Source of the DNA: Candidatus Aenigmatarchaeota archaeon
GTDB lineage: Archaea > Aenigmatarchaeota > Aenigmatarchaeia > Aenigmatarchaeales > Aenigmatarchaeaceae
DNA length: 64,000 nucleotides
Direction: 5' to 3'
Assembly: GCA_043802485.1 (NCBI GenBank)
Contig: JAZDKZ010000006.1
Span: 32,001 to 96,000, forward strand
Both the position numbers and the translations under genes were made by a program. Under the pieces are notes generated by a model that did not search any database, was not told the DNA's origin, and saw nothing but the letters and a program-made list of their open reading frames with translations. The stretch's first letter is position 1, and each line of letters opens with the position of its first letter. Of the stretch, positions 16,826 through 55,623 are shown piece after piece.

Positions 16826-16955
16826 CCCCAGGTAGCTCAATGGCAGAGCGATCGGCTGTAGACGAGTACTGTAGTGCTTGTCGCTTAGCAGTCGCTCGGC
16901 AATCACCGATTACATAAGTCGGTAAAGGTTGGGGGTTCAAATCCCTCCCTGGGGA
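16826..16955 (+). tRNA. tRNA-Tyr(GUA) with two introns (16862-16904 at 37/38; 16911-16925 at 43/44)
   Basis: CCCCAGG/CCTGGGG acceptor, ATCGG/CCGAT anticodon stem, GTA anticodon, two BHB motifs. Confidence 0.9.
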
Positions 16956-20334: not shown

Positions 20335-20446
20335 CTCAGTCGGTAGAGTGCCAGGCTTTTATCTGTTAGATAAAAGCATGTGTAACGCGAAAGCGTGATG
20401 ACAGGAAGAAACCTGGAAGTCGTGGGTTCGAACCCCGCCGGGCCCA
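20325..20446 (+). tRNA. tRNA-Lys(UUU) with 49-nt intron (20362-20410)
   Basis: GGGCCCG/CGGGCCC, CCAGG/CCTGG stem; BHB with CTTT:GAAG central helix and CTGT:ACAG. Confidence 0.92.
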
Positions 20447-54024: not shown

Positions 54025-54423
54025 TTATTTAAAAGACTTTCTTATTTTTTCAGATATTTTTTCCATCTCATCATTCGGTAGTTTCAAAGTCTTCTCTGGA
54101 TTAAGCCAGCTGCCATGGCCGTCATCCTTGAATCTGGGAATAATATGTATGTGTGCATGGGGAACATCTGTTCCGCCAATACCAGAAACCACAAACTCTG
54201 CTTCCAATGATTTTTGCAGGGCCTTGGCAACTTTCTTCGCAGCCTCGAAATAATCTCCTGCGTTTTCAACATCCCAGACCCACCTGTAATGTTTCTTTGG
54301 GATAATCAGCGTATGTCCGGGGTTACAGGGATTGATGTCCAGAAAGGCTATGAAATCATCTTCCTCATAGATATTGTGGCAGGGTATATCCCCTTTCACT
54401 ATCTTGCAAAATACACAGTCCAT
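54025..54423 (-). CDS. HIT family hydrolase
   Basis: CVFCKI, GHTLIIPKKH, HAHIHIIPR. Confidence 0.94.
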   Translation of the reverse strand: MDCVFCKIVKGDIPCHNIYEEDDFIAFLDINPCNPGHTLIIPKKHYRWVWDVENAGDYFEAAKKVAKALQKSLEAEFVVSGIGGTDVPHAHIHIIPRFKDDGHGSWLNPEKTLKLPNDEMEKISEKIRKSFK

Positions 54424-54438
54424 GTTATCACAATGAAG

Positions 54439-54548
54439 TGGGGTTGCCAGGATTTGAACCTGGATCGGCTGGTTTCCTCTGTCATCTTTGGATCAAAGCT
54501 CCAAAAAATTGGAGCCAGCTATCTTAAACCTGGTTGGACGACAACCCC
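54439..54548 (-). tRNA. tRNA-Trp(CCA) with 35-nt intron (54474-54508)
   Basis: GGGGTTG/CAACCCC, GCTGG-CT-CCA-A..A-CCAGC. Confidence 0.9.
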
Positions 54549-54591
54549 TCTGAAAGAATTGATACGCAAGTGTTTTTATATTTTTCTAATT

Positions 54592-55623
54592 CTAAGAGAA
54601 AGCCCTGACAGAATTCCAGGAAACGCTCTTGTTGAGCTTCTCATCTACAAAACCCTTGAAAAGCAAAAATAGATGAACATTACTGAGAAGGAACCACACA
54701 GGCAGGTAAATGAGATCTATCAAAGGTTCCTTGAACTTTATTCTAGAGTAGACAAGAAAAGCCATGGTGAATAAAAATAAGCCAAGAAGAGGCGCTGTCA
54801 AGAAAAGGGGCAGGCCGAAATACATGAATACTGCGAGTATGGTAGCTGTCATGAGCCCAAACGGCGGGACGTAAAAATATACGCCATGCATAAGGTCTGA
54901 AAGGAACTTTATGCCTGATCTTCTCTTGTACTTTAGCATCCTTACAGAGCCTCTGGCCCATCTTATCCTCTGCTTGAAGAAAGCCTTGAAAGACGGCGGC
55001 TCCTCGTTCCATGCTATGGCTTCTGGCTCGAAAACCGTCTTGTAGCCCCTGTCCTTGAGTTTTAGCGACATTTCAATGTCCTCTACAAAGGTCTGCGTGT
55101 CAAAGCAGCCAACCTTCATCAGGACATCCTTCCTTATGAACATGTTCTTGCCGAAAAAGTGGGTGTTGGCTCCCTTGCTGTTGAGGAAATATTCAATAAA
55201 CGAGATGAAACTGGTCTCCAGTGCCAACGATCTGGCTATTATTGATTGGTTCTTGTTATGAGACTTGAGATTGCCACAGACTCCTGCTATATCCTTGTTT
55301 TCAAAACGTTTTGCCACTTTTTTAAGGCAGTTCTTGTCAACGATGCAGTCTGCGTCGTAGATGCCGATTATCTCGCCCTTGGCCTTGGGTATGACGCTGT
55401 TCAGGGCGTCTCCCTTGCAGGTCTTTGGGCTTGATTTTATGACTTTTACCCTGCTGCCAAAGCTCTTGCATATCTTCTCTGTCCTGTCCTTTGAGCCGTC
55501 TATTGCCACGATTATCTCTAGCCTGTTCTTTGGGTATTTCAGGTCCAAAAGGCTCTTTAAGCAATTGCCTACGACTTTCTCCTCGTTCCTTGCCGGGACA
55601 ATAAGGCTCATTGTTGGTAGCAT
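54592..55623 (-). CDS. Membrane glycosyltransferase family 2
   Basis: PARNEE, YDAD, VED, QRIRWARG. Confidence 0.9.
   Translation of the reverse strand: MLPTMSLIVPARNEEKVVGNCLKSLLDLKYPKNRLEIIVAIDGSKDRTEKICKSFGSRVKVIKSSPKTCKGDALNSVIPKAKGEIIGIYDADCIVDKNCLKKVAKRFENKDIAGVCGNLKSHNKNQSIIARSLALETSFISFIEYFLNSKGANTHFFGKNMFIRKDVLMKVGCFDTQTFVEDIEMSLKLKDRGYKTVFEPEAIAWNEEPPSFKAFFKQRIRWARGSVRMLKYKRRSGIKFLSDLMHGVYFYVPPFGLMTATILAVFMYFGLPLFLTAPLLGLFLFTMAFLVYSRIKFKEPLIDLIYLPVWFLLSNVHLFLLFKGFVDEKLNKSVSWNSVRAFS

Follow-up and report, generated by a model that had tools for sequence, protein, structure and literature searches.

What can a 35-nucleotide (nt) intron do in an archaeal tRNA gene? The question is raised by the tRNA-Trp(CCA) gene of a Candidatus Aenigmatarchaeota archaeon, which lies in a 64,000-nt stretch of DNA (the window, to whose positions all coordinates refer unless another contig is named) from a 769-kb genome that is 89% complete. 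Euryarchaeal pre-tRNA-Trp introns of 65-103 nt are box C/D guide RNAs with a C/D and a C'/D' motif and two guides, for 2'-O-methylcytidine at position 34 (Cm34) and 2'-O-methyluridine at position 39 (Um39), and this arrangement has been called unique to tRNA-Trp (PMC2584109, PMC4090602). The intron studied here would work like an intron-encoded box C/D guide yet has one box pair in place of the two that mark that class. Judged from sequence comparison, it is very likely that the module it carries guides 2'-O-methylation of the wobble nucleotide, N34, in one way or another; that it does so as a half guide, built on a single kink-loop (K-loop) and acting in cis on the unspliced precursor to give Cm34, we regard as probable.

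The intron, between tRNA positions 37 and 38, reads in order UUUU, an 8-nt antisense, UUGA (box D'), a 7-nt linker, AUGACAG (box C') and a 5-nt tail, that is, a single box pair in D-then-C order with 8 nt after the AUGA core (Table 1). The antisense faces positions 30-37 of the 5' exon, and by the N+5 rule, under which the nucleotide paired to the fifth position before box D is methylated (PMC6009581), it would single out C34. A first-pass annotation made from the letters of the window had reported a guide-bearing 35-nt tRNA-Trp intron here, over a span (54516-54474) that comprises exon G30-A37 together with the intron, and had paired the fifth base before TTGA, a G, with C34; both points hold. 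Its antisense pairing with 30-37 also stands, though with a U-G wobble at G30 and Watson-Crick pairing at the other seven positions rather than eight perfect pairs, and it correctly saw the same layout in the tRNA-Met(CAU) intron of the window. After box C' there is no room for a guide or a box D, and a second guide for position 39 is absent from the intron. At this locus Rfam returned the tRNA only, with no small RNA (sRNA) family matched at E<=10. A guide, GA at the proper register and a downstream RTGA (R, purine) arose together in 107 of 100,000 base shuffles of the intron.

Table 1. Features of the tRNA-Trp locus and of two related introns in the window
Feature	Positions	Strand	Basis or remark
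Pre-tRNA-Trp(CCA) gene, one intron at 37/38	54439..54548	-	Rfam tRNA, 43.5 bits; ARAGORN with introns
tRNA-Trp intron, 35 nt	54474..54508	-	ARAGORN, sequence reading
Target stretch in 5' exon, G30-A37; predicted methylated base C34 = 54512	54509..54516	-	methylation predicted from N+5 rule
4-nt U loop closing the exon-guide hairpin in cis	54505..54508	-	predicted fold of anticodon arm plus intron, P(C34:guide) = 0.76
Antisense guide, 8 nt; G at 54501, fifth before box D', pairs with C34	54497..54504	-
Box D' (UUGA)	54493..54496	-	GA at N34 register in 55/72 guide-bearing introns
Putative K-loop linker, 7 nt; last base G = first bulged base	54486..54492	-	short stem-loop instead in many relatives
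Box C': AUGA core, then C-A-G; sixth base A predicted to pair with first U of box D'	54479..54485	-	closing-pair covariation
Intron strand of relaxed bulge-helix-bulge splice motif; pairs with 32-35, excludes guide hairpin	54476..54479	-	sequence; forced fold
TATA-like box about 30 bases upstream of tRNA-Trp, preceded by an A-rich stretch resembling a B recognition element (BRE)	54573..54580	-	by eye; putative function
Sister module in 37-nt tRNA-Met(CAU) intron, aimed at C34	20925..20961	+
tRNA-Lys(UUU) intron, 49 nt: guide and box C, variant box D two bases downstream (C32 register)	20362..20410	+

To place this intron in its family we curated the 19 tRNA genes of its genome with an intron at 37/38 and collected all Rfam tRNA matches in nine related genomes (five members of the family from within or beyond the genus, the genome G005 and three of the order). 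The 109 matches of at least 95 nt, three known Trp genes and the 19 own genes made 131 candidates, of which 99 were kept; dropped were those lacking a clean 37/38 parse, introns shorter than 24 nt and five removed by hand (two Leu-UAG with irregular stems, a mis-parsed Asn, a doubtful Leu and a duplicate Asn), while three were re-parsed and one His was admitted by hand. The module was defined, by pattern-and-pairing scripts with no covariance model, as a self-guide, GA at the N34 register and a downstream RTGA, the last being required at selection. So defined, it is complete in 55 of the 99 introns, against a mean of 0.34 and a maximum of 3 in 500 shuffles, counts which overstate independence since the genomes of the family and order are kin. 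Six tRNAs of the genome itself combine a guide, NUGA, a linker and RUGA with N34 opposite the fifth base (Trp, Met, Gln-UUG, Glu-UUC, Leu-UAA and Arg-UCU), and their guides score 5.5-6 of 6 on their own loops (32-37) against 1.5-5 on the other five. Across the ten genomes 72/99 introns pair with their own positions 32-37 at 5 of 6 or better, and modules occur in Trp (8/8), Gln-UUG (9/9), Arg-UCU (9/9), Met (8/9), Glu-UUC (8/9), Leu-CAA (5/5), Leu-UAA (4/4), Lys-UUU (3/10) and Ser-CGA (1/1) introns, and in none of those of Tyr (0/9), Ile-UAU (0/8), Ser-UGA (0/4) and Lys-CUU (0/3). All 55 targets are C34 or U34, each in a Watson-Crick pair with the N+5 base (G:C34 in Trp), in a set selected for pairing to 32-37. 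That the antisense tracks the host anticodon, as the first-pass annotation held, is borne out by the guide being strictly best on its own host in 54 of the 55 modules and by a G facing C33 of Glu-UUC in five of five. The Glu(UUC) gene of this genome (G000:C5:11839-11953, minus strand), which ARAGORN miscalls as Arg, has this C33 in place of the near-universal U, with a G opposite in the intron guide, and C33 recurs in G002, G003, G006, G013 and G023. When the whole genome was scanned for free-standing modules directed at N34 in 25 anticodon loops, 13 matches came up, five of them the intron modules, the chance level being left uncomputed.

Further evidence lies in the spacing of the boxes and in their covariation. 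Among the 72 guide-bearing introns GA occupies box-D positions 3-4 for target 34 in 55, against 2, 0, 1 and 0 for targets 37, 36, 35 and 33 and 5, 5 and 8 for targets 32, 31 and 30; the box at the N34 register is xYGA (Y, pyrimidine) in 51/72 and xxGA in 55/72. The first position of box D and the sixth of box C form a Watson-Crick pair in 52 of the 55 modules (UA 30, CG 13, AU 7, GC 2), where shuffles give a mean of 22.5 and a maximum of 35 and slid partners 7 and 13, and this closing pair switches type on both sides within the Trp, Arg, Gln and Glu orthologues. The motifs are short, and the insertion of an intron could yield an inverted copy of the anticodon region, so that one might see here a chance or historical by-product, an inverted duplication combined with TGA-rich sequence or a part of the splice motif. 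The shuffle tests and the closing-pair covariation already contradict this; the splice helix, moreover, uses the 3' end of the intron and not the guide, and the module is conserved across the phylum and in records named Woesearchaeota, Parvarchaeota, Micrarchaeia and Undinarchaeota. We find such an origin scarcely credible.

The same covariation bears on the register of box C. AAGAUGA, proposed as box C at first pass, is two bases out of register, the conserved box being RUGA-N-N (AUGACAG in Trp, 54485-54479), with its RUGA core present and its sixth position covarying with the first of box D. For the Trp intron alone both registers can be drawn. Taken as a general rule the AAGAUGA register was rejected: it finds the GA step in 39/55 modules and a pairable closing base in 32/55 (14 Watson-Crick, 18 G-U), and it is without box C's uridine, one of the essentials for L7Ae binding (PMC7994747) and one that the RUGA-N-N register retains. 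In most of the family a loop of 4-8 nt links the two boxes, while many others have a short stem-loop there, variants that fit, as expected, a K-loop and a kink-turn (K-turn) respectively. The pairing scheme of both comprises tandem G-A pairs and a closing pair, and the introns, judged from the covariation, would form either structure, a probable site for L7Ae.

The Lys-UUU introns add a second register. That of the window has no GA box D at the N34 register, so that the first-pass proposal of a family of short guide introns with a single box pair stands while its Lys member, at that register, does not. In seven of the ten Lys-UUU introns the box, UUGA in four and UGUA in three (the window's own among the latter), is displaced downstream by two bases and points at C32; Lys-CUU introns of three genomes lack the N34 register, one of them having GA at the C32 register. 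C32 is a known 2'-O-methylated site (PMC2584109).

The genome encodes fibrillarin, Nop5 and L7Ae and one splicing endonuclease gene of 182 amino acids, and a SpoU-family methylase was not found in it at its 89% completeness. Its L7Ae can be aligned over the full length with archaeal L7Ae chains and has GIDV in place of their GIEV, in the loop that governs K-loop binding. With these proteins the first intron bases of the unspliced precursor would fold back on the anticodon loop, making a hairpin closed by 4 nt, box D' and box C' would form one K-loop, L7Ae would bind it and recruit Nop5-fibrillarin, and fibrillarin would 2'-O-methylate C34, the partner of the fifth nucleotide ahead of box D'. 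Next the hairpin would open, 32-35 would pair with the 3' end of the intron, and the splicing endonuclease would cut. Because the hairpin must open for the splice helix to form, methylation would precede splicing.

Mutual exclusion of hairpin and splice helix could also be an end in itself. An L7Ae-bound K-loop with its antisense hairpin might act as a switch in folding or splicing that keeps the precursor from being spliced or stabilizes the excised intron, with no methyl transfer; in each of the seven introns folded (K-loop energy left out) the guide structure is favoured over a forced splice fold by 2-8 kcal/mol, and many splice helices are imperfect, a 4-bp helix being found (G-U counted) in 34/55 module introns and that of Trp (32-35 with the intron 3' end) having two Watson-Crick pairs, one G-U and one mismatch. 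A switch, however, needs no fixed spacing, whereas box D lies exactly five bases from the partner of N34 (55 introns against 0-2 at neighbouring offsets); likewise the second register falls on the methylated C32, and the module is missing from Tyr and Ile-UAU introns of like length. A switch without methylation thus appears quite improbable to us.

Methylation could proceed on the precursor or, with the same chemistry, in trans, Cm34 being guided by the excised and probably circular intron or by that of another precursor bound to the opposite half of a Nop5 dimer. The guide pairs with intron base +1 in 43/49 introns and +2 in 27/41, against 36/49 and 8/41 for mature bases 38 and 39 (at the third base, 4/17 for intron +3 against 6/17 for the mature sequence); since it matches intron +1 and +2 better than mature 38 and 39, the substrate would be the precursor. 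For action in trans speak the long two-motif Trp intron of Haloferax, which works in trans in vitro and belongs to what is described as the one functional case, acting on C34 and U39 (PMC2584109, PMC4090602, PMC11408192, PMC7994747), and the stable, abundant RNA formed by the tRNA-Met intron of Nanoarchaeum equitans, which has the same design (PMC3491384); two half guides on a Nop5 dimer would, in addition, restore the two-motif architecture found necessary in PMC1635284. The geometry points the other way: the guide lies 9-18 nt from N34 in 54 of the 55 modules, the loop of the cis hairpin measures 3-7 nt in 54/55 (the lower bound of 3 being set by the script), and the intramolecular hairpin is predicted to dominate, with P(N34:guide) of 0.48-1.00 over the six modules of this genome and 0.76 for Trp in folds of the anticodon arm and intron. 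In the four introns with the shortest tails box C runs into the 3' exon, where A38 supplies the closing pair in four of four; the circular intron supplies it in one of four, so that circularization would break it in three. We accordingly hold trans action unlikely, and methylation in cis remains our preferred account.

Short Trp introns of this design extend beyond the relatives. An exon-only Trp pattern admitting introns of 20-50 nt found at least 120 loci in a species collection; among the 120 matches listed, 86 have a 5-bp anticodon stem, and of these 55 have a guide at 4 of 5 or better, 48 have GA at the N34 register and 43 carry the module complete; in 34 of the 43 the closing pair is Watson-Crick. 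The titles of module-bearing records among the matches listed comprise Woesearchaeota, Nanoarchaeota, Parvarchaeota, Aenigmatarchaeota, Micrarchaeia, Undinarchaeota, Haiyanarchaeum and four labelled uncultured Methanosarcinales; the module is missing from the short Trp introns that those matches include from records of Promethearchaeota, Caldarchaeum and Methanothermococcus. In the phylum of the window a similar exon-only pattern matches 106 of 301 genomes, and by eye 94 of these loci contain the whole module, 4 combine both boxes with a partial guide, and 1 is not a 37/38 Trp intron; 30 of them, taken by script, have the module in 30/30, and their closing pair is Watson-Crick in 25 cases, U-G in 4 and mismatched in 1. 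Guide-anticodon complementarity, which the first-pass annotation had named beforehand as a test of its proposal, is thus conserved across relatives and phylum Trp loci. A looser module pattern matched 219/301 genomes with many chance matches in coding DNA, and its tally was set aside.

Several facts weigh against a half guide acting in cis. The closing pair is mismatched in 3/55 modules and, among the matches listed, in 9/43 of the wider Trp set, and positions 5-7 of the Trp box C differ from UGA. The remaining 7/106 phylum loci (G125, G163, G208, G190, G243, G089 and G158) retain their guide and box D but have no usable box C, and a K-loop is therefore not always contained in the intron. The Trp duplex falls below a credibility cut-off of nine continuous Watson-Crick pairs (PMC6009581), and set against the roughly 8-12 nt of guide-target duplexes in archaeal box C/D sRNAs it is borderline. 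Duplexes of 7-10 bp, seen in 54/55 modules, stay within the 10-nt channel limit of PMC7229835. Hardin and Batey found a single-motif ribonucleoprotein (RNP) active but not site-specific (PMC1635284), which PMC7229835 puts down to an over-long duplex; the latter paper also judges it improbable that C'/D'-only RNAs assemble in (eukaryotic) cells. To these comes the trans activity of the Haloferax intron in vitro. Fibrillarin, finally, is encoded in 282/301 genomes of the phylum; being nearly universal, its presence discriminates little and a co-loss test is uninformative. Among the matches listed, the very short Trp introns L035, L042 and L121 likewise have a guide and box D at the N34 register and no usable box C, and such box-D-only introns hint at a box C supplied from elsewhere.

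As to the age of the module, its closing pair (permutation 1/2000) and the bases following RUGA (0/2000) go with the identity of the tRNA from genome to genome, the kin genomes not being independent, and this implies that it was placed in each isoacceptor long ago and then inherited. The loop alone is somewhat more alike within a genome (0/2000; 0.43 against 0.39 and 0.33), a likeness that may come from base composition or gene conversion. The spread among tRNAs suggested at first pass thus survives as a family and not as a recent event; recent copying between Trp and Met is not supported, their likeness being no proof when the module parts follow tRNA identity. Introns have also been lost, that of Leu-CAA being present in G003 and absent from this genome. 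On a wider view, which we hold to be evenly balanced between right and wrong, there is a widespread natural class of half guides in small-genome archaea, whereby tRNAs with a wobble pyrimidine (Trp, Met, Gln, Glu, Arg, Leu, Lys and Ser) would methylate their own precursors in cis, the target strand replacing the second box pair, release permitting splicing, and shifts in spacing retargeting the module from 34 to 32.

Other introns of the genome differ in character. The tRNA-Ser(UGA) gene (G000:C1:49332-49487, plus strand) has a 70-nt intron with C/D-like boxes that is not self-aimed; its 10-nt antisense, kept in G002, G003 and G035, matches 16S rRNA near the 3' end (C6 221342, minus strand, within the 16S gene), one of many genomic 10-mer matches with the chance level uncomputed, and the intron looks like a candidate rRNA guide hosted in a tRNA. 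The tRNA-Tyr gene at 16826-16955 (plus strand) has a module-free 43-nt intron, and its variable region holds a further insert, roughly 13 nt long, without counterpart in G003. A tRNA-Ile with a UAU anticodon and introns lies at G000:C7:69848-69987 (minus strand), and eight relatives have a module-free Ile-UAU intron. The intron of tRNA-Leu(UAG) (G000:C6:225476-225604, minus strand) starts with a direct repeat of the anticodon region next to an irregular anticodon stem, as in G003, and was excluded from the counts; that of tRNA-Ala(UGC) (G000:C6:219794-220322, plus strand) has 456 nt. Beside tRNA-Trp, a gene starting 16 bases past it (54423-54025, minus strand) encodes an HxHxH motif, which we take to be typical of HIT-family hydrolases, and a 152-codon plus-strand frame across the tRNA (54214-54672) was treated as a shadow frame.

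In the reviews consulted the Trp intron guide is called unique and two box pairs are taken as the defining form of archaeal guides; whether single-motif guides work in cells is a question raised in PMC7229835 and disputed by PMC1635284. In the literature searched, of which coverage was partial, we found no description of a half-guide family serving several tRNAs. With a natural, conserved half guide, some 30 nt long and joined to its substrate, both the half-guide question and that of cis against trans would become directly testable. Such a guide would also mean that short archaeal tRNA introns have a function, one that could explain why reduced genomes retain them, and would offer a minimal programmable methylation tag. 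The modification itself is familiar: Cm34, 2'-O-methyluridine (Um34) and its 2-thio form (s2Um34) are recorded in archaeal Trp, Met, Gln and Leu tRNAs (PMC7668247).

Among known systems, the Trp guide of Haloferax volcanii and Pyrococcus (sR50) is closest in position and target, lying in an intron at 37/38, aimed at its own C34 by N+5 and having to act on the unspliced precursor. Unlike it, the present intron has 35 nt, one box pair and one guide at its 5' end with none for position 39; the guide's free end is joined to its own target, and at least six isoacceptors have the same design. Free sRNAs aimed at N34 (PMC6009581), those for Met and Leu in Haloferax and Pyrococcus and for Trp, Gln, Val, Thr and Glu in Pyrobaculum, serve the same base in largely the same tRNAs (PMC7994747, PMC6009581) as separate two-motif genes acting in trans, unlike the intron module, and the Met guide is described as "always exonic" in PMC2584109. 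Nearest in design is the tRNA-Met intron of N. equitans, a 66-nt RNA with a coverage of 31,500, a box D, a variant box C and, for its target, the entry "no prediction" (PMC3491384). By eye it has an antisense to the anticodon loop, two bases, CUGA, a short stem-loop and GAUGA, that is, the same module, and the orphan RNA would thereby be assigned a target. Its match to C34 is judged from the usual Met loop sequence. Unlike the introns described here it has 66 nt and an extra hairpin, is treated as a single case, and had its box C drawn in an AAGAUGA-type register (PMC3491384). Engineered half guides with C'/D' only and an open end, which direct site-specific methylation in vitro with Sulfolobus proteins (PMC7229835), and the hemi-complex of PMC1635284 share with the Trp intron one K-turn or K-loop and one open-ended guide; those halfmers, however, are laboratory constructs with separate substrates, whereas the module here is natural and conserved, and its substrate is covalently attached.
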